Part shown: piece by piece, positions 6,001-56,858 of the stretch
How positions within the stretch are numbered: the stretch's first letter is position 1
Layout: each line of letters begins with the position of its first letter
Source of the DNA: Candidatus Omnitrophota bacterium
GTDB taxonomy: Bacteria; Omnitrophota; Gorgyraeia; Gygaellales; Profunditerraquicolaceae
NCBI GenBank assembly: GCA_028717245.1
Contig: JAQUOD010000002.1
Span: 204,772-268,771, forward strand
DNA length: 64,000 nt
Direction: 5' to 3'
Program-made: the position numbers and the translations under genes
Notes under the pieces: model-generated
Database searches by the model: none
Told to the model about the DNA's origin: nothing
The model's input: only the letters and a program-made list of their open reading frames with translations

Positions 6001-9000
6001 CTTCGATGCCAATCCTTATCATTTACCGGGAAAATGCGATATTACCGTAGGTGTAGATTTTACCTCTTTGGTAGAAACCGGCGAAAATGCGGGATTGAAA
6101 TTAAAATTCTATGGTGTTCAGGGGAATCTTGAGTCAGGGATAACCAATTTGTCTCATGATGAGGAATCGAAGAGCAGGATAGTAGCCCGCCGCCTTAAAA
6201 GAGAGTACCCTCAGGCGAAGGCTCCTGAAGGTTTGCAAGAGGGAATAAGAGGCCAGGTCGAAGATGACATAAGGAGTTTTAAAAAAGATTTTCTTGGTGG
6301 CAATAGCGTTAAAATGCTAATACAGCAGAAAGAAGGCACTGATGAACAGTATGAATACAAGATACCTTCCGTAGTATCTCTTGAAGAAATGAGTTTATTC
6401 GCCAGGAGAAAAATCCCGGCCAAGCAAAGGCCTTTATTCCTTGAGCCGCGGATTAACGCCGCGATATTTATCGATGATTTTTGTAATTTAGGTTTACCAG
6501 AAAAAATAGACGCAGACGTTTTAGTTAAAGCTATCCGCGCATCCGGCATATTGCTGATGCCAGATAATAAAGACAATAAAAAATTTATTAAGAAAGAACG
6601 CTTTGAACCTTACGAGTTTGCTTCAAATTCCTATCCAGCTTATCACTGGTTAGTTTTTGGAGGGCAATTGGAAGCTTGCATTGCAAATCAGGCGAGAGAG
6701 ATTATATCAGGGGTTAGCGAATGCCCTGCTAACACTAAAATGTGGATTACATTACCATTGAATGCCATCGGATGTTTTTCTGGTAGAGACGAAAGAAAGT
6801 ATGGTTTACCGAGATATTTAGCAAAGTACCTTGTAAAGGAATATAGTTCATTTGCCGAAGGCTTACGGCCAATAAAGGAACCTTATACGCAAATTGATAC
6901 TAAAGACGTAGAAATTAATTTCGGGGATTGGGCAATAGTAGAATTTGATCCATACTCTAATGCGTCGATTTTTCAAGAGAATATAGGGTTAACCATATTA
7001 GAGAACGGCCGAGAACTGTGTTGTATTAAACCTGATGGCCGAAGAATGGTAGTACTTAATTTTATCTCTAAAAAACCAGAAAATGTATTCAGTTTATTGC
7101 AACAGAGTAGCGCAATCAAACAAGCCGGACAAAAAGAGAGCATATCAGGAAATAACACCCTGCCGCAAGGCACGATTAACAAAAAAACCCTTAACCCTGC
7201 CTTAGGCCCCGGAACATATGATCCTCGAGATCTGGCAACTCTTCAGGGGCAAAACAGTAATTCTGGAAAAACAGGGTCAGATTCAATTTTTTCCTATATT
7301 CTCGCCCATGATTTTATGAGCCCTAATAAAGTGGGGTATATTCAGGCAATAAGAGCTATGTTACCGGTAAAGAATCAAAGGAGGAGGTGCCTTTATATTG
7401 CCTTAGGCGGAGATTATTCAACCAGCCAAATGGTATCGCAGGCCCTAGAAACTATTTGTGTGGATAGGCTTCCTTTTGAGCCTTTAATAACACTATCTAA
7501 AGAAGAGGCGGATTTATATAAAGCCGTGTATATCAAAGACAGGTATTATGCGAATTTTGCTTCTTCAGTCCAATCAGTTGAAGGCGCAGTATTAAGGCGC
7601 GTAGGCGCTAAAGAATATTTTCTTTGGGAATTGGAAATGATGGGAGCCCAAGATATAGAAATAAGTTTTGATACCGCCCTTAATGCCAATAAGATTAGTT
7701 TTATCCTCCCGGGCGAATCGATGCAAAAAAGCATAATTTATTTTAGTTTTGACGCCAGGAATATAGAAGCCTACCCTCAGGCTCTGCTCAACCTTATAAA
7801 AGAAGGATTAGATTCTTTTATTTTTAAAGCCAGCGACGGCGTGGTTTTACCTCTTCAGATCAAAGACATAATTACCAACTCCTTTGATCCGGAAGCTATG
7901 CTGTTTCTGGATAGCGAAGCTTCATTTAGCCACACTTATCTTGAAGAGATAGATGAGGCAAAAATGGGGCAAATCAGGAATTTTGAAAAAATGGGTTATG
8001 CCTTTGGATATGAAAAAGTTCGTTTATTAAGGCCTAAAAAGCCCGAAATCCCCTCCCTCCCCGCAGGTGGGATAGAGGTTGAGAAAAGAAAGACACGGCA
8101 GCATCATTCGAATGACATATATCAGGAACCGTCCCCGCTGCCGTCTCTGCTAGCTAAGAATAGAATAGAGGTTTACCTAGATGATATTGCCCCCAGATTT
8201 TTTAAATTAATGAGAGCTGAATTTTCAGATGATAACAGGCTTTGTCTTATTTCTTCCAGAATTACGGGTTTAGTCCTGGCAGATAAATTTGGGATTCCTA
8301 TAGATAACAAGAGCGCCAATAGGATGGAGGTAAGGTTATGCCCTTATTTTGATGATGGCGGGAAACGTTACCATCAGATGCTTATAATTTATCGCAATAA
8401 TAACCCATGGCTTTTTGTTTATCCTGTCCTGGGATTGTTCTATAGCGGCTTAGAAGGCAGGATAATCTGCAGGGATTATCAGAAATTAAGCGAGTACAAT
8501 TTTATGGACCAGGGAAGGACAAGCTGGGTTCTCGATGAGCAGTTACAACAAAGAATAGAAAGGGTAGCCCAAGAGATTGTAGGGGATGGAAATTTAGGCT
8601 ATGGCAGCATAGCGACAACACAGCTGGCACCTTTTGAGAAGATATCCAGGGCATTAAAAATAGAAAAACTGCTTAATGAAAACTTACGGCAGGAAGGATT
8701 AAATACTCCCATTAAACATGAAGGAACAAAGGGGCTTTTCTACGAATCGGATATTTCTGATGTGGTCAAGGCCTGTCAGGTAATAGGCCTTGAGGGTAAA
8801 AGAGGCATTGATTTAGGCGCAGGCGTTGGCCACGCAGTGTTTGCTATGGCAGTAGCCGGCCTTCGGGGAGTAGGCATAGAATGGGAAAACCATTTAATTG
8901 GTATTGGTAATGGCCTCTTAGATAACAAAGAATTGAAGAAACTCGTTGATACCAGCCGCGTTGACTTAAGGCAGGGCGATTTTATGCAGGAAGATTTAAG

Positions 9001-12000
9001 CCAATACGACATAATTTACTATTATTGGAATGGCGCAGGTTATGGCAATGAAAATAAAGCCCAGGATGCGCTTATGCAAAAGATTAAGCAAGAAATGAGG
9101 CCGGATACCCTGTTGATTATTTACAGAGGGCTTGATACGCTTTCCCTCCCGGGATTTGAAAGAAAAGATTACCCCGGAATTCCCGAGACGGTGAGAGTAT
9201 TTAGGAAAGCCGAGGATATACGCAGCGATTTAGATAGCCCTGATGCAGAAATTAGAAGCAAAGCCATAAGTACTTTGCTGCGCTCAGACGAATACACGGA
9301 TAAAGAAAAGACACTTTTATTATTAAAAAGAGTTATGCAGGACGATGATAAATCAGTACGCACAGAAGCAAGAAGGGCGCTTACTATTCTCTGGTATGTA
9401 ATTGAAGGAAGGCCGAATAATAATTTTGCTGAAGTCCTGCAAGATGTGGGGCAGGGGCTTGCAAAACCAGAACGCGAAACTTTATTAGATATTCTGGTAA
9501 ATTCATTCCTTAACCGGGAAAGCCGCTATGCGCTTAACCGCTTTTGTTTGGATACATTTATGAAAGAGAATCCTAAAGTAAAGATTAATATCGACGAACG
9601 AATTCTGGAAGCAGACAATGTTGCCCCATATCTTATAACCATTGCCGGGCAGCTTTCCGGAATAAATCAGGAGAGCCTGAATTTAGAAATTATATTTTTG
9701 GATAACGTAAATGCAATTGAGAACAGGATTATGGAATCAGAGATTACCTTGCGTAAATATGGGGAGAACGGGCCAAGGGAGATGTTGATTAATATAGCCG
9801 CATTTAAAGAAAAAGCAGGCTATTCTTCGCAGGAGAACGTTATTTTCGCCAAAAAGATTTCCGAGGTATTGAATCAGTGCATTAATAAAGATAGCTGTGA
9901 TTTCGCTCCGATTGACAATACCAAAGCGGCATTGGAGGGTTTTGTGCCTTTGGATGAAAGCTTTCTCTGGAAGATAAGCAATTTATATTGGCAGTTAATG
10001 GGGAAGGATTCTTTTAAAGACCCGTACGCAGATACTTCGTTTTTCCCTGAATTACCCACGCACTTGAGAAAGGTACCCAACGGTTTATATGTTTATCACA
10101 GTTTTGCTTCTGCCTGCGCGGATAAATTCTCTAAGTATCTTTGCGAATTAGAAAATAGAGGCGATTTACCCGGGAGGATTATTGTTCAAGAATGGGGCGT
10201 GGGGAATGCCGATTTTCCGGAAAAGTTCCTGGGCGCCCTAAAACGGCTAAGCGCAGAAAAAGTAAAACAGCAGGGAGGGACGGATTTTTACGGGAGGGTA
10301 ACTTATGTAATAGGCGATATATCCCTTAAGATGTTAGAGAATATACGGCAGGCAGAATGGTACCCCCAGCATAAAGAGAAGATAGAATTTTCCGTAATGG
10401 ATGCCGTAAACCCTCCCCAGGCTTATCGGGGCAGGACTCTATTATTGATAAATAGCTATCTCTATTGCGTATTGCCGGCAAAAGTGATTGCGAAGAAAGA
10501 GGGCCGTTTTTACGAGATGTGCGTAAGGGCGTATCTGAATAAAGACATACGTATTAAAACCCGGGAGGGAAAGGACGTTTCAGCCGAAGAATTCACAGAG
10601 ATGCTGGTAAAAAATGATATACAGGCGCTTTCAAAACTCAACCCGTCTTTCTGGTATGCGTTGAATTATGAAGAGGTATATAAAGAATTTGATCCTCGGA
10701 GTAATAGCTGGGGTGATTACATAGCATGGATAACGCAAGGTAAAGATAATTGCCGGTTCATAATTAATAATCAGGCGTTAGAGAGCTTAACAAAGTCGCT
10801 TGATTTATTAGATGAAAAAAGAGGGATGATTTGGATATTTGAATTGACTTCGCCGGATGCATTAAATAACCCCCTTGCCGGCCCGATGAGTTTTGGCCCT
10901 ACGCTGGCTACACCTGTAAATACATCCTTATTGGAATACGCAATTAATAAAAACCGCGGTTGGAAAATCTCGGTTTCTCCTTCAACTATGTTTTTGCCGG
11001 AAGATACGAAGCGCGCCCAAAAATATACCTATATTGAAGTAGAAAAGAACAAATCCCCGCATATAGATACAAAAAATACGGCCTTATGTTTCAATCCCTT
11101 CATATTTTCGCTTCTTATCCCTTCCCTTATGCCCCTTATTATATTTTTGGGCGTGGCGGTATTTCCCTCTGCTCCTTTCATACCCGCGTGGCTGCCTGTA
11201 ATCAAAACAATGGTTACTAGCGCTGTAGTAAAGATTCAAAATATAGTTAGTAAGATAAAGGATAGATTCATACAAATAAAGCCAGTCCTTTATTTAGATA
11301 TATTAATATTCTTTTTTACAATCGGCATATTTATTCCTCTCTATTTCTTCCGAGATAAGATAGGAGAATTAGGAGCCTATGGCTATTTTGTGGCGTTCTG
11401 TATCTCAATACTCACTAACCTGACGGTATTTTTCCCTGTTCCAGGCATTGTAGCAACAGGTGCTTTAGCAACTGTGTTTAACCCTTTTTGGATTGGTATC
11501 GTGGTTGGCATAGGGGCGACTATCGGACAGATTACAAGTTATGGTTTTGGTTATAGCGGTAAATCCATAATTAATGGAAATCGTATCTACCAAAAACTGA
11601 TGAATTGGATACAGGGTTTGCTAATATACAAAAAAATAAATAACTGGGTAGAGAAACGGCCAAACCTGTCTATTTTTATTAGTTACTTTTTTCCTATTCC
11701 GGGTGTATCTGATACTGTCGGAGCAATAGCCGGTAGCGCAAAGTACCCTTTTTGGAAATACTTTATCTTTTGTATGTTAGGCAATATCCCTAAACATATC
11801 TTTTATGCTTATTTTAGCGCCTGGGGATTAAATTTATTTTTCCCGGATATTTTTAAATTGGGTATCTCCGGAAATCCTTTAATCTCTTTACCTCTTCTGG
11901 CAATAGCAAACTTACCTATAATGGGATATGATGATTTTGAAGGAGAAGAAGGAGAAAACCACAGAAAGAGGCCAAAGAATAAAAAAAGAAGAGAGGAAGA

Positions 12001-14530
12001 CGATATCGAAGCCCGGCTTAAGAATGTGGTGAGATTTACAGATGTGCAAGAAGCTGTTTCTAAAGCGCCAGTTAAAGAAAGATCTGTATCTGCGCAGGCA
12101 GTGGTTGTAGAGAATTCAGCAGAGGGAAGAAAAATTACTCCCAAGCAAGCCAAACCGGTTACAAAAATCAAGGCCACGGGAGTTGATAGGTTAAGGCAGA
12201 TTTCCGTTTTGCTTGAAAGAGGATTGGCGTCCGATGGGTTTACGGGATTTCAAAGAGAGGCTTATGAGATTAGCGAAGAAATGGCAGCAGAGCAAGGCAA
12301 TGTTGCCTTAAAACAACTCTACGATTTAATTACAAGGCCGGATTTACACCAAGGCGTAAACAGGTGGATAATCGGAGGAATAAGTAATTATTTTAAGCGT
12401 CCGAGCGTGAGCTTAAAGGATATTATGCTTTTACTTGCCGACGAATTTTGGCAAGATAACGCGGGAACAGGAAATATGATAACCGGCGTAATGATAACGG
12501 CGGTTAAAAGGCGATTACCCGAATATAAGGGCGCTGCAGGGATCGTCGAATTACACGTCCTGCTCCACGATAAGAATATTCGTAAGTATAAAGGCCTGCG
12601 CGCCTTGTTGTACAATCAAATCAGGGGCGATTTAAATAATATAATTTCCCTCAACGAATTAATTGAATTATATTTAAGCCAGAGATGGTTCGAGGGCGTG
12701 GGCAGGAATATGGTATTTCCCAGAATAGAAGAATTGATCGGTAAAGGCGCGTTAGCGCGGGTTGATTTTTTTAAGCTGGCTAACTGGTATATGGACCCTT
12801 TTCTTGATTCGGAAAGAAATGAAAAATCATTTTGTGAAGAACTGAATAGAAGGATTAGGGGCTTAGATTTAAATACAATAGATTCATACCTCGTTGATTC
12901 CGGCATCCCTAGAGAAGTAAAAGAATTAATACGGAAAATAAGAGGTGATGAACTTAAGGGTTTCTACGAAGAAAAAGAAAGGGAAAAGAAAGAGGCAGAT
13001 AGAAAACAAAAGATAGGGGGTCATTTGGCTTGCGTAGAGAGATTAAGCGCGGAGGGTAAATTAGAGGAATCGTCGGCAGAATTACGGGTACTACTTGAAG
13101 TTGAGCCTGAAGATGAAGGAGCGTTGTTAGAGTTTATGCTGCAACGGTGCAGCAACGCACAAGTCTTAAATAATTATATCCGTATCAGGAAAGATTTTAT
13201 AATAGATAAAATTCTGGAGGCCAAAGAAGGCAGGCCAGATTATTTCTATTGTTTGCTTGAAGTCATGCAAAAAGTTTACGGCCGGCAGGATATAGACAAA
13301 AAGGTCGCAGAGGAATTTAAAGCTCAGGCGCAAGAAATAATAAAATCCATAATTGACAGGGACATCAAAAAAATAAACCATATCTTTACGCTTCCTGCCA
13401 GCAGAGAGGTAAAACTTGGCATGCGCGATGAGATTCTGGGAGGCCTTTTTCTAAAGACGGATGATTTAGTAAAACGATTCCTGGATACCTTATCTGAAAA
13501 TGAAATCCCTGTGTTTCTGGAGTCAATGTCAGGAGCCGTCGCTTTTTATGATTTATGCGCGCGCAAGGATATAAGTAATGCCATAAGGGCGCAGCTTAGG
13601 CAGATAGTAGATTCAGCCATTGATTTTATATACTTTAACCGTTCGTTTGACTTGCCGCGCAATACTATGCTGTTTATTAAATGCCTGCTTAGTAAGGAAG
13701 AGTTTTCTCAGACTGTATTCAGCGTTCAGGCAGAGTTGATGCCTTATTTACAAGAAGACAATCAGGATAAACTGATGGGATTTGTGATGGATAAAAATAT
13801 TTCTTATAAGGAAAAGAAGGCAATTTTATTCCGGTTAGCGATGTTGTGGACAGAGTTTTTGAATAAAGACGGAAGCCCAGGGCAGATAGCTAATCTGTGC
13901 GATAATGCTGACCCGCTGGTTAGGGCGTATCTTTATTATGCCTTGTCTTTGATACGCAGCCCTAAATATGACGAGGCGAAGGCGATACAACAAGAGCTTG
14001 CGCGTAAAATAGCGGGTCTGGTTAAGGCAGGACAGATAAATAGAAAAGCGTTGATGGATATTCTTTATGAACTTCAGCCGGTAGATAGTCGTAACAGGTT
14101 GTTCTTAATCTACTGTATAGTGGCATCTTTAGCGGTTGAGAGAAAGATTTCCGCGTTCATTCCCAAGGAAAATCCGGGCGGTAAGATGTTAACAAAAGAT
14201 AGCAGTAAGTTGATAAAAGAAGCGTTGGCCGAAGCAGCAGAGAGCGATTTTGTAAAGAGCGATAGCTGGCATCAAGAATTGATTGAAGACGCGTTATGGT
14301 TGCTTGAGCAGGATGATAATTTAAAGAAACATGCCCTGAGGAATATAATTGAATTGATTACAGCTGCGGGGAGCTCAAGTAATATTTGGGCACTCTATAG
14401 GCGTAAGATTGACGCTTTGAAGAAGAAAAGAAAGGGCACTCTTGGCAATGTAGTTACTATTCCGGGCAAACAGGAACCGTTTACAAGGCAACAGCGTTCG
14501 CCTGGATGGGATGGTTTTATTTATAAGTAG
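56..14530 (+). CDS. giant multidomain membrane protein (4,824 aa): N-terminal TM bundle and coiled coil, two atypical kinase-like modules, Methyltransf_11-like SAM MTase, two MidA/NDUFAF7-like MTase modules, DOT1-like MTase motif, HEAT-like repeats, embedded DedA/VTT-like multi-TM block, helical C-terminal third
   Basis: Single uninterrupted 14.5-kb frame in an AT-rich genome; the other five frames show only ORFs under 160 aa. ATG at 56, but this frame has no stop back to base 2, so the true start may lie upstream of the window. Motifs were read directly from the translation (see findings). Confidence 0.85.
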   Translation: MKRCEAAIMKLIMEQNGTLSDWEVFYYYGWYMRIRKKSAAASRFSGSSLRGLPNIVLALGTGFIAAMLLRANGHSGINWLNISAGLLLAGLPVYIMIRGLRKISINDLSQSLKKLTRDDIIGFIILVGYLIVYAAIVYAAFWLMQLTAAPSLAPHSMLPNMPFGQALPFTISDLTGFFISAAFLVGMARGSIGGAGQRNIIRESGNAKKIMPEDEIRASVTNLYVWFDILKGTDPKISAALSKIYSAYQELDFSQNNRAKLNELTEAKARLKEGLEQLRGILLGRENELTGVMAKLLEKQRVASKDAPTRIGEMKREIKAALAKLESKSTNALSLNPYAFSLIFSILAPFMPVLGPLVSIAVNQMYSLPACIFVIEAILNKTQAKRKPKEDMVKETEDEKSERLRQAKIYYKEGLYYAQAGLTDFEKGNVKAARRNWFTAIRNFKEATDSSWEYTEAYYNWALVYYRYYNTFVKQPSPRGVFAKIAAAIRGDEEHKKEVWEEYLYEIKFILGLFPELRKKLEGKIIIPDLDSGDISPSPSGGNNSLAHGGDVGKAQFSLGSGSEASGIELVTGREPREQYYGPVPDGDLFRGSTRAKHKFEDGITRSSGRAPGKKIYKSQIIRDAIRDRIPCFFLMLVKNIDFAVPIKRIIVPRDIANLELEGKTPFEKKVIRLSHDLLNQLKNQHNIEVLIKEGDDSILEHETEDFGITLNGAEGRLSPENFKEISRKTGSLLAGLHKAGVIASDSHPANFIVNTETMEVRRIDFEWVDIFDKELARELTQKYEFSEAELRGLGIHSTRIPSSEMTKEILTLIWTEKDKSKNLHNSLFIWPFAGGYLSVKHEFDEWEEDLERMLYYLLSFRDKEEGNLGGKANTEAEQYGKTVPESEQPVKETRPNPASSIEVIEATPKYRQDIISLIHSSFPELDNEMERILRDNRVFVALVKVREEWEFAGAVLTAIKRVINEKGEIVLPATYIDASKHESNFTAQPHSFWLIDFAIAVSPEIKVKGISDALIQATDKYTDEQGLMRPDAASRARDAGKFKDALLQERAKALPEAKAKNLSGLNIMIRYLMTTTLNPKGVVKDSFAKYAAMPNGMSPFLLWLKESKRLARSDGVDDSPYANFVNVISPLLEEIDKHSPKDLEGFLKTYDDFDYSRLAQPDVIEEFGKLLRDFINGSSRYEDQIIAGLHMRLGAHIGRITKNSLPGHPETLDMNIHMFYPEKVNDNIPPADNPVLPVQGVSPNGTSSEAHARNMIPPLVLTLYFARMAGFAMPSLELSASEIDPVIVILLLMFLFVIKKVVVEEIDKRSEKLNRARIDKILNSNEIKADDTVAKPVIKNYNYPERITPHNAPIAKVFKEPLPPSARFYPKTEPSLRLMDSKYQNIAREFKEAIQNKPFPTEGMFLEIGHGGNLSSPGFAIKFGLEPWGIDLDRHANADTINDIVGQAENILPLIKDNSFDVIAVIDTFGIMTRENSFYKAQPIDPVWLIMQIARILKPDGYLVIADFSADLEDLKLKYGMELNKLAEGAGLKVLRYRIEGSRAISIIYKPSELSPLAPRVGAAGLEIAEFKKPTEIGLGQRPSTAVTLDDVQLPSVIEKDRKDAALSSRSRIEIEEVPIPDAMAEDASKDSFSFKEYMDAALYNPGWGFYGSGRVQFTRGKDFETYPKILSPVFGELVCEQAFKMWKGMLAAKTISEAEEFTIVESGAGEADLSYDLLSHAEELAKSDELWNIFYRQLVYISLERSPKLVKRQKEKNAKFSPKFRVIEGDARDVAKLIKKPIKGLILSNELMDNFAVYKVRFEPDGATKTPLAIPLISVELAKELSKRGIIRELDLAMRNEQLKKDFYLPNKKGKLYISKSDFLKIKAELSKQEYRQLEDSFDTQIDFVEAYLDIKYFPELFDYVHKNRRELSFAIAKEAKAVTAYLSPDAVRFIQSAAGILDKGYILTIDYGASTQGLLNPEYIKHPIMMYGPVSVRDIFDANPYHLPGKCDITVGVDFTSLVETGENAGLKLKFYGVQGNLESGITNLSHDEESKSRIVARRLKREYPQAKAPEGLQEGIRGQVEDDIRSFKKDFLGGNSVKMLIQQKEGTDEQYEYKIPSVVSLEEMSLFARRKIPAKQRPLFLEPRINAAIFIDDFCNLGLPEKIDADVLVKAIRASGILLMPDNKDNKKFIKKERFEPYEFASNSYPAYHWLVFGGQLEACIANQAREIISGVSECPANTKMWITLPLNAIGCFSGRDERKYGLPRYLAKYLVKEYSSFAEGLRPIKEPYTQIDTKDVEINFGDWAIVEFDPYSNASIFQENIGLTILENGRELCCIKPDGRRMVVLNFISKKPENVFSLLQQSSAIKQAGQKESISGNNTLPQGTINKKTLNPALGPGTYDPRDLATLQGQNSNSGKTGSDSIFSYILAHDFMSPNKVGYIQAIRAMLPVKNQRRRCLYIALGGDYSTSQMVSQALETICVDRLPFEPLITLSKEEADLYKAVYIKDRYYANFASSVQSVEGAVLRRVGAKEYFLWELEMMGAQDIEISFDTALNANKISFILPGESMQKSIIYFSFDARNIEAYPQALLNLIKEGLDSFIFKASDGVVLPLQIKDIITNSFDPEAMLFLDSEASFSHTYLEEIDEAKMGQIRNFEKMGYAFGYEKVRLLRPKKPEIPSLPAGGIEVEKRKTRQHHSNDIYQEPSPLPSLLAKNRIEVYLDDIAPRFFKLMRAEFSDDNRLCLISSRITGLVLADKFGIPIDNKSANRMEVRLCPYFDDGGKRYHQMLIIYRNNNPWLFVYPVLGLFYSGLEGRIICRDYQKLSEYNFMDQGRTSWVLDEQLQQRIERVAQEIVGDGNLGYGSIATTQLAPFEKISRALKIEKLLNENLRQEGLNTPIKHEGTKGLFYESDISDVVKACQVIGLEGKRGIDLGAGVGHAVFAMAVAGLRGVGIEWENHLIGIGNGLLDNKELKKLVDTSRVDLRQGDFMQEDLSQYDIIYYYWNGAGYGNENKAQDALMQKIKQEMRPDTLLIIYRGLDTLSLPGFERKDYPGIPETVRVFRKAEDIRSDLDSPDAEIRSKAISTLLRSDEYTDKEKTLLLLKRVMQDDDKSVRTEARRALTILWYVIEGRPNNNFAEVLQDVGQGLAKPERETLLDILVNSFLNRESRYALNRFCLDTFMKENPKVKINIDERILEADNVAPYLITIAGQLSGINQESLNLEIIFLDNVNAIENRIMESEITLRKYGENGPREMLINIAAFKEKAGYSSQENVIFAKKISEVLNQCINKDSCDFAPIDNTKAALEGFVPLDESFLWKISNLYWQLMGKDSFKDPYADTSFFPELPTHLRKVPNGLYVYHSFASACADKFSKYLCELENRGDLPGRIIVQEWGVGNADFPEKFLGALKRLSAEKVKQQGGTDFYGRVTYVIGDISLKMLENIRQAEWYPQHKEKIEFSVMDAVNPPQAYRGRTLLLINSYLYCVLPAKVIAKKEGRFYEMCVRAYLNKDIRIKTREGKDVSAEEFTEMLVKNDIQALSKLNPSFWYALNYEEVYKEFDPRSNSWGDYIAWITQGKDNCRFIINNQALESLTKSLDLLDEKRGMIWIFELTSPDALNNPLAGPMSFGPTLATPVNTSLLEYAINKNRGWKISVSPSTMFLPEDTKRAQKYTYIEVEKNKSPHIDTKNTALCFNPFIFSLLIPSLMPLIIFLGVAVFPSAPFIPAWLPVIKTMVTSAVVKIQNIVSKIKDRFIQIKPVLYLDILIFFFTIGIFIPLYFFRDKIGELGAYGYFVAFCISILTNLTVFFPVPGIVATGALATVFNPFWIGIVVGIGATIGQITSYGFGYSGKSIINGNRIYQKLMNWIQGLLIYKKINNWVEKRPNLSIFISYFFPIPGVSDTVGAIAGSAKYPFWKYFIFCMLGNIPKHIFYAYFSAWGLNLFFPDIFKLGISGNPLISLPLLAIANLPIMGYDDFEGEEGENHRKRPKNKKRREEDDIEARLKNVVRFTDVQEAVSKAPVKERSVSAQAVVVENSAEGRKITPKQAKPVTKIKATGVDRLRQISVLLERGLASDGFTGFQREAYEISEEMAAEQGNVALKQLYDLITRPDLHQGVNRWIIGGISNYFKRPSVSLKDIMLLLADEFWQDNAGTGNMITGVMITAVKRRLPEYKGAAGIVELHVLLHDKNIRKYKGLRALLYNQIRGDLNNIISLNELIELYLSQRWFEGVGRNMVFPRIEELIGKGALARVDFFKLANWYMDPFLDSERNEKSFCEELNRRIRGLDLNTIDSYLVDSGIPREVKELIRKIRGDELKGFYEEKEREKKEADRKQKIGGHLACVERLSAEGKLEESSAELRVLLEVEPEDEGALLEFMLQRCSNAQVLNNYIRIRKDFIIDKILEAKEGRPDYFYCLLEVMQKVYGRQDIDKKVAEEFKAQAQEIIKSIIDRDIKKINHIFTLPASREVKLGMRDEILGGLFLKTDDLVKRFLDTLSENEIPVFLESMSGAVAFYDLCARKDISNAIRAQLRQIVDSAIDFIYFNRSFDLPRNTMLFIKCLLSKEEFSQTVFSVQAELMPYLQEDNQDKLMGFVMDKNISYKEKKAILFRLAMLWTEFLNKDGSPGQIANLCDNADPLVRAYLYYALSLIRSPKYDEAKAIQQELARKIAGLVKAGQINRKALMDILYELQPVDSRNRLFLIYCIVASLAVERKISAFIPKENPGGKMLTKDSSKLIKEALAEAAESDFVKSDSWHQELIEDALWLLEQDDNLKKHALRNIIELITAAGSSSNIWALYRRKIDALKKKRKGTLGNVVTIPGKQEPFTRQQRSPGWDGFIYK

Positions 14531-14604: not shown

Positions 14605-15294
14605 GTGAAAGATAGAAGACGCAGTATCCGCTGGCAGATAAATCAACAGGCAAAGGTGAAATTAGAGGGCGCCTATGCCTTTATCCAATGTTTTATTAAG
14701 GATATCAATTTTACGGGCCTGCAGATTTCTCTCCGTATGAAGTTGCCGGAAGATACATTTTTAAAGTTTAACCTGGTTTTATCTGAAGAGGCTACTTTAG
14801 ATATAGAGGCATGGGTAGTTTGGCATAAAAGGAGAGATGATTTTAATGTCTACGGCCTTCGTTTTACTCAGATAAATGAAGAAAACAGGGGGGAAATCTA
14901 TAAATTTCTCTATAAATATTTCCCTGAGGAGGTGGTTAAAAGATGGGGACAAAAAACAGCAGTTAATACAGGAGGCGAGACTATGCAAGACAAGAGGATT
15001 TTTGAGAGGTTTCCCGCGAGTTTACCTTTAAGATTCATCGACTTAAGCGTAAATAAAGAGAGCCAGGCGCAGACACAGGATATCAGCGCTAAAGGGATTG
15101 GGCTAATGACAGATAAAGAGCTTAGCCCGCAAACGCCTTTAGAGATGTGGCTGGATATCCCTGACCACCGCGAGCCGCTTTATACCCGGGGAGAAGTGGC
15201 CTGGTCTAAGCTATTGGGGCCCGATAAATACAGGGTAGGAGTTAATTTAGAAAGGGCGGACTTAATGGGTATAGCGCGGATATTAAGGTCATAA
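14605..15294 (+). CDS. tandem PilZ-domain protein (c-di-GMP receptor-like)
   Basis: Two repeats of the PilZ signature: RRRSIRW ... DINFTGLQI, and KRIFERF ... DISAKGIGL. GTG start, with AAAAAGG upstream. Confidence 0.7.
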   Translation: MKDRRRSIRWQINQQAKVKLEGAYAFIQCFIKDINFTGLQISLRMKLPEDTFLKFNLVLSEEATLDIEAWVVWHKRRDDFNVYGLRFTQINEENRGEIYKFLYKYFPEEVVKRWGQKTAVNTGGETMQDKRIFERFPASLPLRFIDLSVNKESQAQTQDISAKGIGLMTDKELSPQTPLEMWLDIPDHREPLYTRGEVAWSKLLGPDKYRVGVNLERADLMGIARILRS

Positions 15295-15301
15295 TTTTTA
15301 G

Positions 15302-15340
15302 GGCTCTGGCTATGTTAAGAGAAGAAAAGCCAGTTTTTTA
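15302..15340 (+). terminator. candidate terminator after the PilZ gene
   Basis: Stem CTGGCT / AGCCAG with a 16-nt loop, followed by TTTTTT. Confidence 0.45.
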
Positions 15341-15342
15341 AC

Positions 15343-15371
15343 TTGACAGAACTTTAATTATATTATATACT
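15343..15371 (+). promoter_or_regulatory. sigma70-like promoter, TTGACA-17-TATACT
   Basis: Exact -35 TTGACA (15343-15348), 17-nt spacer, -10 TATACT (15366-15371). It lies about 190 bp upstream of the second PilZ gene. Confidence 0.5.
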
Positions 15372-15377
15372 TATGAC

Positions 15378-15486
15378 AAAGATAACAAGAAAACGTTTTT
15401 TTCATAAGAGTTTTTTAAAAGATTTAAAAATCAGGGCCACGGTTGAAATTGGACTTGAAAAGATCCAAAGAAACGCGGCCTTTTTA
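15378..15486 (+). ncRNA. candidate small RNA or 5' leader (about 110 nt) ending in a hairpin plus T-tract
   Basis: The promoter above is followed by a non-coding stretch that ends in GGCCACG...CGCGGCC TTTTTA (15435-15486). No ORF over 20 codons lies in between. Confidence 0.3.
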
Positions 15487-15564
15487 TTTATTGTATAAAT
15501 TTAGGGTTTGTGTTAAAATAAATTTTTAAAGGAATAAAGCCACGGAGAAAGGAAGGAGAGAAAT

Positions 15565-15906
15565 ATGGAGGACCGCAGGGTGTTCGCCCGGATAAATACC
15601 AGTTTTCCTGTAAGATTCTTAGACCCCACTCGCGGGATAGAGGGCCGGGCAGAGACGGTGGACATTAGCGCTAATGGCTTGGGTTTAGTTACTCAAGAAA
15701 ACTTATCGTCCAGGACGCCTTTAGAGATTTGGTTGGACATTCCTGACCAACATGAGCCGCTGTATACCCGGGGGAATGTGGTCTGGTCACAGGCCTCTTC
15801 CGATGCAGGGCAGCAGCGCGTAGGCATACGTTTGGAAAAAGCCGAACTCATGGGCCTGGCGCGCGTATTATGGATGCGGAAACAAGCAGAGGATAGGTTT
15901 AATTGA
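15565..15906 (+). CDS. single PilZ-domain protein, paralog of the C-terminal half of the upstream tandem PilZ protein
   Basis: RVFARI ... DISANGLGL motif. Roughly half the residues are identical to residues 130-229 of the upstream protein. RBS GGAAGGAGAG. Confidence 0.7.
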   Translation: MEDRRVFARINTSFPVRFLDPTRGIEGRAETVDISANGLGLVTQENLSSRTPLEIWLDIPDQHEPLYTRGNVVWSQASSDAGQQRVGIRLEKAELMGLARVLWMRKQAEDRFN

Positions 15907-50918: not shown

Positions 50919-52277
50919 ATGAGACCCAAGACAAAATCAGAATTAATGAAATTAGTAAAAGAACAAAAAGTGAGGTACATCAGGTTGTGGTTTACCGATG
51001 TATTGGGATTCCTCAAAGGTTTTACCATAACCGTGGATGAACTGCCGCGGGCCTTAGGGGATGGCATGGGTTTTGACGGCTCCTCTATCGAGGGGTTTGC
51101 CCGCATAGAAGAATCAGACATGATCGCCCGGCCCGATATCTCTACCTTTGCTATTTTGCCCTGGGAGTCAAAGGAGCAGCCGGTAGCGAGGATGTTTTGC
51201 GATATCTACATGCCCGACGGTAAACCTTTTGTCGGCGATCCCCGCTATGTCTTAAAAAGGAATTTGGATAAGGCTAAGAAGATGGGGTTTACCTATTATG
51301 TGGGGCCGGAACTGGAATATTTTTATTTTAATAACCCCAAGAATGCCATTGTTTTGGATAGGGGCGGATATTTTGATTTAACACCCTTAGATGTGGCCCA
51401 GGGCGTAAGGAATGAAACTGTGAGCGCCTTAGAGGATTTAGGTATCATTGTGGAATACAGCCATCATGAAGTAGCTTCCAGCCAGCATGAGATTGACTTA
51501 AGATACTCCGATGCCCTGTCTATGGCGGATAATGTGATGACCTACCGGCTGGTAGCTAAGGAGATTGCTCAAGGTAAGGGCCTGCATGCTTCGTTTATGC
51601 CTAAGCCGATTTACGGGATAAACGGTTCGGGTATGCATACGCACCAGTCATTATTCTCCGCCAAAGGCGGATCCGCCTCCGGCGGAAAGGGCGAAACTAA
51701 TGCCTTTTTTGAAAAAAAAGATAAGTTCCATCTTTCTGAAATTGCTAAACAATTTATCGGCGGATTGCTAAAATATAGCACGGAGATAACCTCCATAACC
51801 AGCCAGTGGGTCAATTCTTACAAGCGCCTGGTGCCCGGATACGAAGCTCCGGTTTATATCTGCTGGGCGCAGATGAACCGTTCAGCTTTAATCAGGGTGC
51901 CGATGTATAAGCCCGGGAAAGAGAAATCTACGCGCATAGAATACCGTTCTCCCGATCCGGCGTGTAACCCTTATTTGGCTTTTTCCGTGATGTTAGCGGC
52001 AGGCCTTGAGGGCATTGAAAAAAAATGCGCCTTACCGGAACCGGCCAATGACAATATTTATCATATGACTGACGAACAGAGGGAGCGTGCCAAGATTAAG
52101 TCTTTGCCGGAAGACCTTCTTGAGGCAATCAAGATCACGGAGAAATCGGAATTAGTGAAGAAGGCATTAGGCGAGGAGCTTTTTCATTTCTTTATCCGCA
52201 ACAAAAAATTAGAATGGGATGAATATAAGCAGCAGGTTACCCAATACGAAATAGACAAATACCTGCCTATACTGTAA
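50919..52277 (+). CDS. glnA: glutamine synthetase, type I
   Basis: Overall GS beta-grasp plus catalytic domain pattern, including the GINGSGMHTHQS region. Confidence 0.85.
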   Translation: MRPKTKSELMKLVKEQKVRYIRLWFTDVLGFLKGFTITVDELPRALGDGMGFDGSSIEGFARIEESDMIARPDISTFAILPWESKEQPVARMFCDIYMPDGKPFVGDPRYVLKRNLDKAKKMGFTYYVGPELEYFYFNNPKNAIVLDRGGYFDLTPLDVAQGVRNETVSALEDLGIIVEYSHHEVASSQHEIDLRYSDALSMADNVMTYRLVAKEIAQGKGLHASFMPKPIYGINGSGMHTHQSLFSAKGGSASGGKGETNAFFEKKDKFHLSEIAKQFIGGLLKYSTEITSITSQWVNSYKRLVPGYEAPVYICWAQMNRSALIRVPMYKPGKEKSTRIEYRSPDPACNPYLAFSVMLAAGLEGIEKKCALPEPANDNIYHMTDEQRERAKIKSLPEDLLEAIKITEKSELVKKALGEELFHFFIRNKKLEWDEYKQQVTQYEIDKYLPIL

Positions 52278-53008
52278 TGCCAAAGGCGAAAAAGAGCGAA
52301 AATTACAAAATTTATCTGAAGCAGATTGAGGCCCTGGCCAAGGTAGCCAACCTGATCACTTCCGGGCTCTATTTAGAGGAACTCCTGCGTTTAGTGGTCC
52401 AGGTTACCGCCGAAATAATGAATTCCAAAATTTCCTCTCTTATGCTCTTTGACCCGTTCAAGAAAGAATTGGTGGTCAGGGCTACGCAATCTATTTCTGA
52501 GGCCTACAATAAAAAACCCAATGTCAAATTAGGAGAAGGTATTGCCGGTATAGTTGCGCGGGATAATAAGGCTATCTGTGTATTAGATGTCAAAGAAGAT
52601 GAGCGCTATCTAAATAGAGATATTGCCGTAAAAGAGGGGCTCTGTTCTTTGGCCAGCGTCCCTTTAGCAGTAAAGGCCAGGGTGATAGGCGTACTGAATT
52701 GCTATACCTCCAGAAAACATAAATTTACCAAGCCCGAGTTAGATGTCTTGACTGCTTTGGCTAATCAGGCAGCCGTGGCCATTGAAAACGCGGAATTAGA
52801 CCTGCGGGCGCGCAGCGCCGAAGAGGCGTTAACCACGCGTAAACTTATTGAGCGGGCCAAAGATATTCTTTCGCAGGAAGCAAAGGTCTTGCCCTCTGAG
52901 GCTTATCGCTTAATCCAGAAACAGAGCATGGATAGCCGTAAATCCATGCGCGAAATTGCCGAGGCCATAATTCTGGCTAAAGATGTAAAAGAACCAAAAC
53001 TCAAATGA
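52277..53008 (+). CDS. GAF + ANTAR domain RNA-binding antiterminator-type regulator
   Basis: N-terminal GAF-like segment; C-terminal ANTAR helix pattern TRKLIERAKDILSQEAKVLPSEAYRLIQKQSMDSRKSMREIAEAI. Its start overlaps the glnA stop. Confidence 0.65.
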   Translation: MPKAKKSENYKIYLKQIEALAKVANLITSGLYLEELLRLVVQVTAEIMNSKISSLMLFDPFKKELVVRATQSISEAYNKKPNVKLGEGIAGIVARDNKAICVLDVKEDERYLNRDIAVKEGLCSLASVPLAVKARVIGVLNCYTSRKHKFTKPELDVLTALANQAAVAIENAELDLRARSAEEALTTRKLIERAKDILSQEAKVLPSEAYRLIQKQSMDSRKSMREIAEAIILAKDVKEPKLK

Positions 53009-53070: not shown

Positions 53071-54897
53071 ATGCCTGAAGAAAATTTAAAAGAATACCTG
53101 ATTAAAACCCCCGCGCAAGATAAATGGAAAAGAATCGGCACGCAAAAGAGGGCAGGCATATTAGCCCCTTTGTTTTGCGTTTATTCTAAAAAGAGCGCGG
53201 GTATAGGCGAATTCAGGGATTTAAAACTCTTGATAGATTGGGCGAAATTAACCGGTAATTCCATTATTCAGCTTTTGCCCTTGAATGAAGTCGGCCCTCT
53301 TTTTTGCCCCTATGATTCCTTAAGTTCTTTTGCCCTTGAACCGGCATACCTGTCTTTAGAGGTTATTCTCAGCAGAAATAAAAATTCTTTCAGAACAAAA
53401 ATTAATCAACTTAAAGAGGAATTCCCGGCAGGCAGGCCATATCTGGATTACCGTATCAAAAAGAGGAAAATAGGGTTACTCCGGGAGATATTCCTTGCCG
53501 GAGAAGAGCCCGCTTCCAAAGACTTAGAAAAATTCAGGCGGGATAATGATTATTGGATTGATGATTTCGTTCTATTTAAAGCCCTTAAGGATTATCATGG
53601 GGGTAAGCCCTGGTATGAATGGGAGGCGCGCTATAAAGACCGCGATGTCGCGGCCCTTAAGGAATTCTTCGAAGCGCACTCTAAGGAAATTACTTTTCAA
53701 ATCTGGCTGCAGTGGCAGGCATCTAAGCAGTTTAAAGAGGTAAGAAAATACGCCGAGGTGAAAAAAATCCTGTTAAAAGGGGACCTGCCTTTTCTTGTTT
53801 CCAGGGATAGCGCGGATGTCTGGCAACACCGGCGATTTTTTAAATTAGGGTTTGCCGCAGGCGCTCCGCCGGATATGTATTGCGCTAAGGGCCAGCGCTG
53901 GGGTGTACCTACCTATAATTGGGATGAGGTAGCCGCAGATGATTACAGGTATTTAAAAGAGAAACTTAAATTCGCCCAGCAATTTTATGACATATTGCGC
54001 ATAGACCATGTCGTGGGCTTATTCCGTATCTGGAGTATCCCTTATCAGGAGCCTTTAGAGAACCAGGGCCTAAACGGTTTTTTTGACTTGCCTGATGAGA
54101 ATAAATGGGAGCAACAGGGCAGAAATATTTTATCGGTTATGCTCAATAATACCAGGATGCTTTTATGCGCGGAAGATTTAGGGATAATACCCGATATGTG
54201 TAAAAAGACATTAAGAGAATTAGGCATACCCGGTAATGATGTCCAACGCTGGACTAAAGATTGGAAGATAAAGCACGATTTTCTCCTGCCGCAGGATTAC
54301 CGTGTTCTTTCCGTGGCCATGCTCTCTACCCATGATACGACTAACTGGGCTGCCTGGTGGGAGAACGAAGCCGGGACAGTGGATGCGGAACTCTTTAAAA
54401 GGAAATGCGCTGAGCGTGGGGTAGATTATAACTCTGTAAAAGATAAATTATTTGATTTGGCGCGTTCGGGGCACGCTAGATTACGCTGGTTAGATAGTAT
54501 CAATTCAAGCGATATTCTGACAGCCGTTCTAGGCAAAAAGAGAGAGGAAATCGGGGATTTTATAGATATCTATGATAATACTTACCGTGAAAAAGAAAAA
54601 CTCTTTCAACGTTTGGGTTTACCCGGGCCGATGCCGGATAAGGTAGGTGCGGATATTATCAAAGCCGCGTTAAAAATAACCCTTGGCTCAAGCGCGATAT
54701 TCTGCATAGAGTTGATACTAGACTGGATGTATCTAGCCGGCATACTTAAGGGAGAACCCTATCAATACCGCATAAACACACCCGGCACAATCAGCGTAAA
54801 GAACTGGTCTCTGGTTATTCCTCTGCCGCTTGAAGATTTAATCAAACATAAGGTTACGAAAGAGATCAGGAGTATGGTTATCGTTTCCCGCAGGTAG
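53071..54897 (+). CDS. malQ: 4-alpha-glucanotransferase (amylomaltase, GH77)
   Basis: GH77 conserved segments (DHVVGLFR, GIPGNDVQRW). Confidence 0.75.
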   Translation: MPEENLKEYLIKTPAQDKWKRIGTQKRAGILAPLFCVYSKKSAGIGEFRDLKLLIDWAKLTGNSIIQLLPLNEVGPLFCPYDSLSSFALEPAYLSLEVILSRNKNSFRTKINQLKEEFPAGRPYLDYRIKKRKIGLLREIFLAGEEPASKDLEKFRRDNDYWIDDFVLFKALKDYHGGKPWYEWEARYKDRDVAALKEFFEAHSKEITFQIWLQWQASKQFKEVRKYAEVKKILLKGDLPFLVSRDSADVWQHRRFFKLGFAAGAPPDMYCAKGQRWGVPTYNWDEVAADDYRYLKEKLKFAQQFYDILRIDHVVGLFRIWSIPYQEPLENQGLNGFFDLPDENKWEQQGRNILSVMLNNTRMLLCAEDLGIIPDMCKKTLRELGIPGNDVQRWTKDWKIKHDFLLPQDYRVLSVAMLSTHDTTNWAAWWENEAGTVDAELFKRKCAERGVDYNSVKDKLFDLARSGHARLRWLDSINSSDILTAVLGKKREEIGDFIDIYDNTYREKEKLFQRLGLPGPMPDKVGADIIKAALKITLGSSAIFCIELILDWMYLAGILKGEPYQYRINTPGTISVKNWSLVIPLPLEDLIKHKVTKEIRSMVIVSRR

Positions 54898-54906
54898 AAA
54901 AATTAT

Positions 54907-54984
54907 TTGACAAAATTTATTTTGCTGATATTATGTATGATAATATTCAATTTGTGAGAAAGACAATGGTGTCTTTCCTTTTAT
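54907..54984 (+). promoter_or_regulatory. gdhA promoter (TTGACA-16-TATTAT) followed by a leader hairpin GAAAGAC-AATGGT-GTCTTTC plus CTTTTAT
   Basis: Promoter at 54907-54934. A perfect 7-bp stem with a 6-nt loop (A at loop position 1, G at position 4) and a T-rich tail at 54958-54984, about 85 nt before the gdhA ATG. Confidence 0.45.
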
Positions 54985-55054
54985 AAAAGGGGAGGCGCCA
55001 TTTTATTTTTATGTTCCTTGCCTGAAAATTAAGCAGTATCTGGATAAAACATAA

Positions 55055-56407
<1,353 letters not shown>

Positions 56408-56412
56408 GTATA

Positions 56413-56786
56413 GCGGCCTGTCTTGGCTTGCTTTAAATGAATCTGTCAATTTTCTCGCTCAAGTCGGTTTTGCCCTATCGGGCACGCCAAAGGTCTTTCG
56501 TGAACTCGGCAGCTGCGGAACTCGCCCGTCGGCTTTCGCCAGGACGGGCTCAAACATCCTCGCTGTCCGAATGCTTCCGCGTTCGGATTCCCTCGTTCAC
56601 TCAAGCTGCTTTGGCTAAAACCTCCATTTGCTCGAAAACCGCCAGATTCATTTGTTGTAAATTGACATATTTATTTTTAGCGGGTGGCGCGGGGATGCCT
56701 CGAGGAAAATTTGACGAGAGGCACCCCGTGACAGGACCCGCTACCTCATAAGATAGAAATGCGAGAAAGCAAGACAAGGCAGCCGC
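56413..56786. ncRNA. candidate large structured non-coding RNA or structured element (~375 nt, GC-rich, unidentified family)
   Basis: GCGGCCTGTCTTGGCTTGC (56413-56431) is complementary to GCAAGACAAGGCAGCCGC (56769-56786). Internal hairpins include GCCCGTC...GACGGGC, CCGAA...TTCGG and a nested GCGGGT/GGGG/GCCTC...GAGGC/CCCC/ACCCGC structure. Local GC is near 58% against a ~45% background. Overlapping ORFs are R/S/A-rich and not protein-like. Confidence 0.3.
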
Positions 56787-56805
56787 TAAGAGTGTTATTG
56801 AGTCA

Positions 56806-56834
56806 TTTACAAATTTCAATCTGCGTATTATAAT
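56806..56834 (+). promoter_or_regulatory. sigma70-like promoter TTTACA-17-TATAAT for the UPF0371 gene
   Basis: Hexamers and spacer were read directly; RBS AAGGAG precedes the ATG at 56859. Confidence 0.5.
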
Positions 56835-56858
56835 ATAGATGATAATGATAAGGAGTAT

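Follow-up and report, generated by a model that had tools for sequence, protein, structure and literature searches.

Orphan bacterial non-coding RNAs (ncRNAs) of the raiA, OLE and HEARO type are intergenic, a few hundred nucleotides long and supported by covariation; they carry conserved loops as well as hairpins of variable length, and each is restricted to a single lineage. Several large orphan bacterial RNAs later proved to be ribozymes, riboswitches or scaffolds of ribonucleoproteins (RNPs). Here we describe an element that shares the traits of the raiA, OLE and HEARO type, found in Candidatus Omnitrophota, a phylum without cultured members whose cells are very small and possibly dependent on a host. 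It lies between gdhA and a DUF1846 gene in a 64,000-nt stretch of contig JAQUOD010000002.1 (positions 204,772 to 268,771), the whole of which is referred to below as the window. We hold, with moderate confidence, that the 376-nt island at 56412-56787 of this window carries a member of an undescribed structured ncRNA family, present in Candidatus Omnitrophota and in one metagenome-assembled genome (MAG) labelled Aminicenantales; the part shared by the copies is a core at 56435-56653. The element differs from the described orphan RNAs in that it matches none of the 4227 Rfam 15 models and in that its position is unusually unstable, with more than one copy in some genomes. Among these RNAs it is best placed as a new family of its own.

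Other described systems are similar in part. As generally described, 6S RNA, signal recognition particle (SRP) RNA with its archaeal-type S domain (helices 6 and 8) and Y RNA share with this element paired 5′ and 3′ ends, a long irregular rod with internal loops and, in most copies of the element, an apical junction of a short and a long hairpin with GNRA-type loops. However, the element has no large central bubble as in 6S RNA, no helix-8 motif of SRP RNA (a GGAA loop with AGCA and AGG loops), and neither the tRNA-like module nor the rsr neighbour of Y RNA, and the Rfam models of these RNAs give no score even at E ≤ 10. Similarly, ERIC, BIME and miniature inverted-repeat transposable elements (MITEs) are imperfect palindromes at gene ends that are present in one relative and absent from another, receive site-specific internal insertions and vary in copy number. 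Unlike these, the element shows no target duplications and has termini that are not conserved across subfamilies, while its interior loops are its most conserved part, its copy density is low and compensatory changes occur throughout. The ncRNA of retrons (msr-msd) also combines pairing terminal inverted repeats with a short hairpin and a long variable one; yet no reverse transcriptase adjoins the element in eight loci, and its conserved loop is unrelated to the branching-G context.

The one genomic survey of the Omnitrophota that we found annotated RNAs with Rfam only (PMC10066038), and the element is invisible to annotation of that kind. Our search of the literature on Omnitrophota RNA motifs and on DUF1846 found nothing relevant. 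A covariation-supported RNA of ~220 nt would extend the short list of large bacterial RNAs that await a function, and would be distinguished by its invariant internal loop, its variable hairpins and its unstable, sometimes duplicated position.

Copies of the core in unrelated surroundings

Spurious open reading frames (ORFs) turned out to be an effective route to copies of this non-coding element. A search of the protein collection with a 104-aa ORF of the island returned 11 unnamed ORFs, and an exhaustive HMMER search gave 20 matches, about 17 of them credible; the similarity is confined to the part encoded by 56437 to about 56650. The DNA was examined for four ORF-detected copies (loci L096-L099), about a dozen more being known from spurious ORF calls alone, and every ORF-detected copy forms a singleton cluster on one contig. 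Comparison of the island with 80 DUF1846 loci by BLASTN and nhmmer yielded sub-threshold matches only, one of which, L017, was later confirmed by a covariance model. Together with two copies in L009, this makes seven further copies at the DNA level (L096, L097, L098, L099, L017 and the L009 pair), all on metagenomic and MAG contigs.

The window copy and those of L096-L099 share 79-88% identity over the stretch from AATGAA to TTCATTT; the similarity stops sharply at both ends, and the flanks beyond are unrelated. The conserved unit is therefore the core, 56435-56653. A covariance model trained on these five close copies scores the window copy, itself a member of the training set, at 247 bits. 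Its independent matches are L017 12277-12546 in the Aminicenantales-labelled MAG (65.5 bits, E = 1.5e-14) and two sites in the Omnitrophota MAG contig L009, 4968-5185 and 7099-7297 (23.6 and 22.9 bits); the matches in both L017 and L009 retain an invariant loop, AUGUUUGAG / CGAGUU.

The gene neighbourhood of the element differs in every genome. The core lies between a miaA-like gene and hflX in L096, between cysS and tmk-holB in L097, after a 218-aa gene without Pfam match in L098 and after fumarase in L099. Across the loci the neighbours are housekeeping genes: gdhA, DUF1846, the miaA-like gene, hflX, cysS, tmk, holB, fumarase, rph, tRNA-Arg, gmk and coaBC. For the host of the L097 copy, the best named relatives of MetG are mostly from Omnitrophota; cluster names gave no indication of host taxonomy.

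Single copies have peculiarities of their own. The two L009 copies are 92% identical, lie 2.1 kb apart within 7.3 kb and both lack hairpin H1 of the structure described below; the first stands 41 nt past a tRNA-Arg(TCG) gene that itself follows a DUF1846 gene. One called ORF of 183 aa (P0142) spans two tandem, strongly diverged copies. The L017 copy bears an 85-nt insertion in hairpin H2 with a perfect terminator-like hairpin (AAAAAAUGGGGGCUUUCCCCCAUUUUUU); its core is flanked by an outer 13-bp helix, CUUCCAUUCUGUG / CACAGAAUGGAAG, and directly upstream runs a GGAUUCAUUUAA stretch that resembles the P1 strand of the window type.

Covarying helices around an invariant loop

RNAalifold predicted the same architecture on both strands, namely a closing helix that leads through a rod to a junction bearing two hairpins, the short H1 and the longer H2. 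The closing helix P1 (AAATGAATCTG / CAGATTCATTT) joins 56435-56445 to 56643-56653; like the features that follow, it is assigned to the minus strand. Beyond P1 the rod comprises helices P1b, P1c, P1d, P2 and P3, and is interrupted in most copies by tandem G·A internal loops; the largest internal loop is predicted at about 7x7 nt, and the apex is branched in most copies. One strand of P2, GCCAAAG on the plus strand (56486-56492), pairs with 56609-56615. A variable hairpin at 56472-56483, which reads GCCC-TATC-GGGC on the plus strand (GAUA loop on the minus strand), is absent from L096, L097 and L098, and a longer hairpin takes its place in L099. H1 (56566-56587) is a stem of 9 bp that contains one mismatch but no internal loop and is closed by a GGAA loop; compensatory changes occur in it in L098 and L099, and the L009 copies lack it. 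H2 (56524-56549), interrupted only by a 2-nt bulge near its loop, is flanked by an asymmetric loop that hardly varies, and no part of the family is better conserved than this region (56520-56557). On the minus strand the two sides of the asymmetric loop read AUGUUUGAG (56557-56549) and CGAGUU (56525-56520).

In the minus-strand alignment of five sequences, 97.3% of the cells are paired and 12 pairs, spread over five helices, are changed on both sides; none of 500 shuffles reaches this level, and slid controls give at most 1. A further covarying helix was missed by the alignment, GGUUUU/AAAACC in the window and GAUUUU/AAAAUC in L097 and L099. With eight sequences, 94.4% of the cells are paired and both-side changes are found in 44 of the 63 pairs, although these figures lean towards structure because that alignment was fitted to the covariance model. 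In L017, P1, P2 and P3 all differ in sequence yet remain complementary, while GAGGAUGUUUGAGC and GCGAGUUCCGCAGCCGCC are unchanged. P2 itself is replaced by GCCUUCC/GGAACGGC in L017 and by CUAAAAU/AUUUUAG in L009; the L009 copies, which lack H1, retain AUGUYUGAG ... GCGAGUU and the tandem G·A loop. The invariant loop is thus kept in both L017 and L009 although the helices around it change. The core helices are maintained by compensatory substitutions, as expected of a functional structured RNA, and a comparison across genomes, of the kind that the initial annotation had proposed, finds the core elsewhere with its base pairs preserved by such changes.

Absence from known protein and RNA families

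The 104-aa ORF is open on the plus strand of the island, and gene callers have annotated ORFs in many of the copies. None of the spacer ORFs has a Pfam match. The indels among the copies are of 1, 2 and 3 nt, plus the one variable hairpin, so that not all are multiples of three; reading frames switch from copy to copy, and in the N-terminus that the ORFs share, substitutions are mostly non-synonymous. Judged from these reading frames the core is non-coding, in line with the earlier view that the ORFs called here are not protein-like. The element is labelled as hypothetical proteins (P0121-P0148) by gene callers, and such annotations merit removal.

No known RNA family could be assigned either, as had been suspected by eye: a scan of the whole window, on both strands, with Rfam 15 (4227 models) returned no match at gathering thresholds, and at E ≤ 10 the island gave noise only, SNORA63 at 17 bits and HOTAIR at 16 bits. 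The copies in L096-L099, L017 and L009 gave nothing at either setting, and ARAGORN reported no tmRNA or tRNA. Several superficial resemblances were followed up and rejected. GAGGAAA and ACAGGACCCGCUA recall RNase P, and the pattern xUGxxGAG...CGAxx a hammerhead ribozyme; these, like K-turns, were ruled out by inspection of the sequence and by the absence of an Rfam score. A look-alike of the tmRNA T-loop, GUUCGGAUUCC, actually lies in a stem, and the GGA expected of a CsrA sponge is not conserved; neither has an Rfam score. SRP RNA was rejected for want of an Rfam match, with H1 lacking an internal loop and H2 having only its 2-nt bulge, and 6S RNA because nothing matched RF00013 or related models at E ≤ 10, the central bubble being absent and the apex branched in most copies.

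The likelier RNA strand

Several asymmetries between the strands argue for the minus strand as the likelier source of the RNA. Its minimum free energy is the lower one in 8/8 copies, by 4-20 kcal/mol; for the window core the values are -99.2 on the minus strand vs -83.9 kcal/mol on the plus strand, and the consensus energies are -79.05 vs -66.2 kcal/mol. On the minus strand 14 cells of the alignment are G·U and 2 are A·C, although prediction of the structure on that strand biases this count somewhat. The change in P1 along U:A -> G·U -> C:G passes through a viable intermediate on the minus strand only. The hairpin loops of the five close copies read GGAA/GAAA and GAAA/GAUA on the minus strand and are pyrimidine loops on the plus strand, and the 2x2 internal loops are GA/GA on the minus strand in these five and in the L009 copies. 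The strand of the model is purine-rich in 8/8 copies, as are the coding strands of this genome. An intrinsic terminator, that is a GC-rich hairpin followed by a U tract, was found on neither strand within 56408-56858.

The island as a composite and an indel

The spacer that holds the island runs for 451 bp without genes, from the end of gdhA at 56407 to the start of the DUF1846 gene at 56859. As the initial annotation had noted from a figure of ~450 bp, it is unusually large, ranking second among the window's gaps between ORFs of at least 150 aa; the largest (15295-15902) is occupied by a 113-aa PilZ-like ORF. The same annotation had called the region GC-rich, at ~58% against ~45%. The enrichment is real but the contrast was overstated: 56413-56786 has 52.4% GC vs 43.9% for the window, 57.8% is reached only in the inner part (56455-56620), and parts of gdhA also stand at 57%. 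A 388-nt stretch around the island folds at -161.7 kcal/mol on the plus strand (z = -6.96 vs shuffles) and at -162.1 kcal/mol on the minus strand (z = -8.25).

The island is a composite of the conserved core, a rod with a three-way junction and a candidate ncRNA on the minus strand with homologous copies and a covariance model, and of an accessory module. The latter consists of a left outer arm at 56412-56434 (AGCGGCCTGTCTTGGCTTGCTTT), which pairs with a right outer arm at 56766-56787 (AAAGCAAGACAAGGCAGCCGCT), and of a three-tier GC-rich hairpin at 56679-56747 whose ends are TTTTAGCGGGTGGC and ACAGGACCCGCTA; no strand is assigned to these parts. The complementary ends first noticed at this locus do exist: ungapped pairing of the arms extends over 17 nt at 88% complementarity, and the best long-range inverted-repeat score, 12, compares with 7.4 +/- 1.0 in 500 dinucleotide shuffles, 2 of which reach 12. 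They do not serve as the closing helix of the conserved unit, as had been supposed, since the core has its own closing helix P1 and the outer arms belong to the accessory module. The three-tier hairpin was likewise correctly seen but misplaced, lying at about 56680-56741 and not at 56682-56753.

Counterparts of the outer arms and of the three-tier hairpin are found only in L096 and L098, where they lie to the right of the core. The blocks TTTTAGCGGGTGGC, ACAGGACCCGCTA, AAGCAAGACAAGGCA and CTTGGCTTG are common to the window and L096/L098 in a different nesting order: the L096 module ends in the same TTTTAGCGGGTGGC and ACAGGACCCGCTA as the hairpin, the right-arm block AAGCAAGACAAGGCA also occurs in L096, and CTTGGCTTG, related to the left outer arm, stands right of the core there. 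The module is absent from L097 and L099, and L017 carries its different 13-bp outer helix. With counterparts restricted to L096/L098 and rearranged there, the module is therefore an addition that varies between lineages. It lengthens the rod and encloses the core in the window, and it is not a conserved part of the family. The three-tier hairpin part is more stable on the plus strand (-49.7 vs -42.2 kcal/mol).

Between core and hairpin lies an AT-rich linker (56654-56678) in which the first 18 nt of the core find a second, degenerate complement. This segment, at 56659-56676 just after the core, reads AAATTGACATATTTATTT (83% complementary), whereas a perfect complement would read AAATTGACAGATTCATTT, and a weaker form of the segment is also seen in L096. 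It may provide a pairing alternative to P1, or be the remnant of a duplication.

The locus itself has a history of gain or loss. The island starts 4 nt past the gdhA stop codon, and in L085-L089 and L092/93 gdhA is directly followed by DUF1846 across a spacer of 85 or 71 bp, at protein identities to the window of 90% for gdhA, 86% for DUF1846 and 74% for the next gene. The window spacer without 56412-56787 would measure 75 bp, and the whole 376-nt island is therefore an indel; with the island removed, 22 nt separate the stop codon from the -35 hexamer vs 20 nt in L092. Conservation at this locus, which the initial annotation had led one to expect, is accordingly not found, two relatives carrying an empty site. 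The closest relative, L090 (gdhA 94% identical), ends 25 nt past the stop codon, inside an arm: the terminal 27 nt of its contig, from the AG of the stop codon, read AGCGGCTGTCTTGTCTTACTTTCTCAC, the same kind of arm at the same junction, and the right outer arm of the window is 93% complementary to this contig end. The two closest lineages thus both have the island, and the next ones lack it. Six bases, GTATAA|GTATAG, are nearly duplicated at the gdhA stop codon of the window (56399-56414); L090 has a single GTTTAG here, so that gdhA of the window stops one codon pair before the island junction.

Interpretation and rival explanations

The initial annotation's central idea, a structured RNA of unassigned family, survives this analysis, while the conserved part, the likely strand and the history of the locus turned out differently. 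The functional unit would be the ~219-nt core, as an RNA made most likely from the minus strand. Its ends would pair in P1, and its long irregular rod (P1b, P1c, P1d, P2 and P3) would end in a junction with the short, dispensable H1 and the longer, length-variable H2, the latter seated on the nearly invariant asymmetric loop. This loop may be the working site, a platform for binding a protein or a ligand. The RNA would then act as a stable, end-sealed particle and not as a regulator of its neighbours, and in this genome the extra GC-rich hairpin module would wrap the core and lengthen its rod. The analysis establishes that the element recurs, that its structure is conserved, that it belongs to no known family, that the island is an indel and that the two strands differ; transcription of the core, activity of the minus strand and an action in trans are what we infer from this.

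A number of observations weigh against such an RNA. The covariation statistics come from only 5-8 sequences, the eight having been aligned by fitting to the model. Neither GNRA loops nor G·A motifs are present in all copies, L017 being without both and the L009 copies without GNRA-type loops. Scans for promoters and terminators at all loci, on both strands, gave no convincing conserved signal. In 7 of the 8 loci an RNA from the favoured strand would be antisense to the genes on both sides; on that strand a terminator-like hairpin immediately precedes the core in L009, and in L017 the perfect terminator-like hairpin stands inside H2. The element is moreover an indel, the genes on either side of it standing next to each other in relatives; this, the varied neighbourhoods, the two copies within 7 kb at 92% identity and the tandem pair would all fit a mobile repeat as well.

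The main rival is accordingly a non-autonomous mobile or dispersed palindromic repeat of the MITE, ERIC or BIME kind that spreads as DNA, its fold being a by-product or serving as a generic hairpin in transcripts. The empty sites in L085-L089 and L092/93, the different neighbourhood of every copy, the L009 pair (92% identity, 2.1 kb apart) and the ORF over two tandem copies are what such a repeat would leave behind; its ends are inverted repeats, the L090 contig breaks inside an arm, and a copy is present at 3 of about 21 Omnitrophota-like DUF1846 loci (window, L009 and L017), far above the expectation for single-copy genes. Yet no target-site duplication was seen at the five close copies (window, L096-L099), and no direct repeats surround the 376-nt island (GTAT on the left, AAGAGT on the right). 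The termini of the subfamilies differ (AAAUGAAUCUG, AGAUAUCCGG, GGAGAUUUUUGC) while the interior loops are invariant, the reverse of the pattern for a transposase-bound repeat, and the interior helices show compensatory changes. Copies are also sparse in the stretches scanned, the L009 and tandem pairs excepted: with filters off, the 64 kb of the window gave no second copy and 95 kb from the closest relatives gave none at all, no other sequence of the window has these ends, and the ORF-detected copies are all singleton clusters. No transposase adjoins any copy; a metagenome scan with the outer-arm pattern AGCGGCN{0,1}TGYCTTGKCTTRCTTT gave two chance matches, both inside coding sequences, and plasmids, phages and IMG/VR yielded no copy, 80+ chance pattern matches having been screened with the covariance model. 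We regard this explanation as possible if somewhat doubtful, and favour a function at the RNA level, to which we would give about an even chance; the two are not mutually exclusive.

There is also a bolder form of the RNA explanation. The core could be the RNA of an unrecognised RNP or ribozyme-like system of the Omnitrophota and their neighbours, one that may relocate or multiply itself as a selfish structured RNA gene, with AUGUUUGAG / CGAGUU as its active or binding site. This proposal is speculative and we consider it rather improbable.

It is unlikely that the element acts in cis on transcripts, be it as a terminator, 3′-end stabiliser or insulator for gdhA or as a regulator of DUF1846. 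Its placement would suit such a role, the island starting 4 nt past the gdhA stop codon (inside the stop codon in L090), several copies beginning at the stop codon of the upstream gene (TAATGAA) and copies lying near DUF1846 genes in the window, L009 and L017. The adjacency to stop codons is probably an ascertainment effect, however, because those copies came to light through gene-caller ORFs, which favour such starts. GC-rich hairpins follow the core on the plus strand in the window, L096, L098 and L009, and in the three that were folded the plus strand is the more stable; still, no hairpin is followed by a U tract, and different genes neighbour the element at every locus. The DUF1846 gene has a promoter-like site of its own, TTTACA-17-TATAAT (56806-56834, plus strand), downstream of the island; its hexamers are identical at the empty sites of L085 and L092, whose spacers were read. 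The island is therefore not the leader of this gene, because that promoter lies 3′ of it and is present at empty sites. A generic stabiliser would also have no need of invariant loops, and the strand signals favour the opposite strand.

Still less probable is an orphan RNA of a retroelement or RNA-guided system, akin to retron msr-msd or to an omega- or bridge-type guide, that has come to lie apart from its protein gene. Paired ends and a short and a long variable hairpin at a junction do recall the retron layout as generally known, and the location varies, with more than one copy in some genomes. Against this, no gene for a reverse transcriptase, TnpB, IscB or IS110 is present in the eight loci, and Rfam gives no match to HEARO, retron or IS605-type motifs. 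A decayed pseudogene or small protein-coding gene, for which only the open 104-aa frame and the annotated ORFs of many copies speak, is hardly credible, given the frame switches, the indels that are not multiples of three, the mostly non-synonymous changes, the lack of a Pfam match and the fact that the sole relatives of the ORF are other copies of the same element.

Neighbouring genes and further features of the window

The left neighbour of the island, outside the element, is gdhA, which encodes an NADP-specific glutamate dehydrogenase (55070-56407, plus strand). The closest relatives of the DUF1846 protein on the other side (76-86% identity) come mostly from Candidatus Omnitrophota MAGs, as do the named relatives of gdhA. 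Exact look-ups of the gdhA and DUF1846 proteins of the window, and of the 100%-identical P0001, returned no record. In some relatives (L081-L084, L091) a GAF-ANTAR regulator follows gdhA directly. In L007 (5308-7521) a homologue of the window ORF at 52277-53008 is directly followed by DUF1846, whereas in the window malQ and gdhA, together with the island, intervene between the two (53071-56407); this neighbourhood has therefore been rearranged more than once.

Upstream of gdhA there is a promoter-like sequence, TTGACA-16-TATTAT (54907-54934), and the 5′ untranslated region contains a 17-bp hairpin followed by a U run (54965-55012); both promoter and hairpin are kept in L090. An alternative hairpin, GAAAGAC-AAUGGU-GUCUUUC, overlaps this terminator, and from its sequence the leader (54907-55012) looks like an attenuator or a riboswitch-like control of gdhA.

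Elsewhere in the window, a single ORF of 4824 aa fills 56-14530 on the plus strand. It is followed by paralogous PilZ-like ORFs at 14605-15294 (229 aa) and 15565-15906 (113 aa), which have a C-terminal segment in common; most of the largest apparent spacer of the window is taken up by the second.

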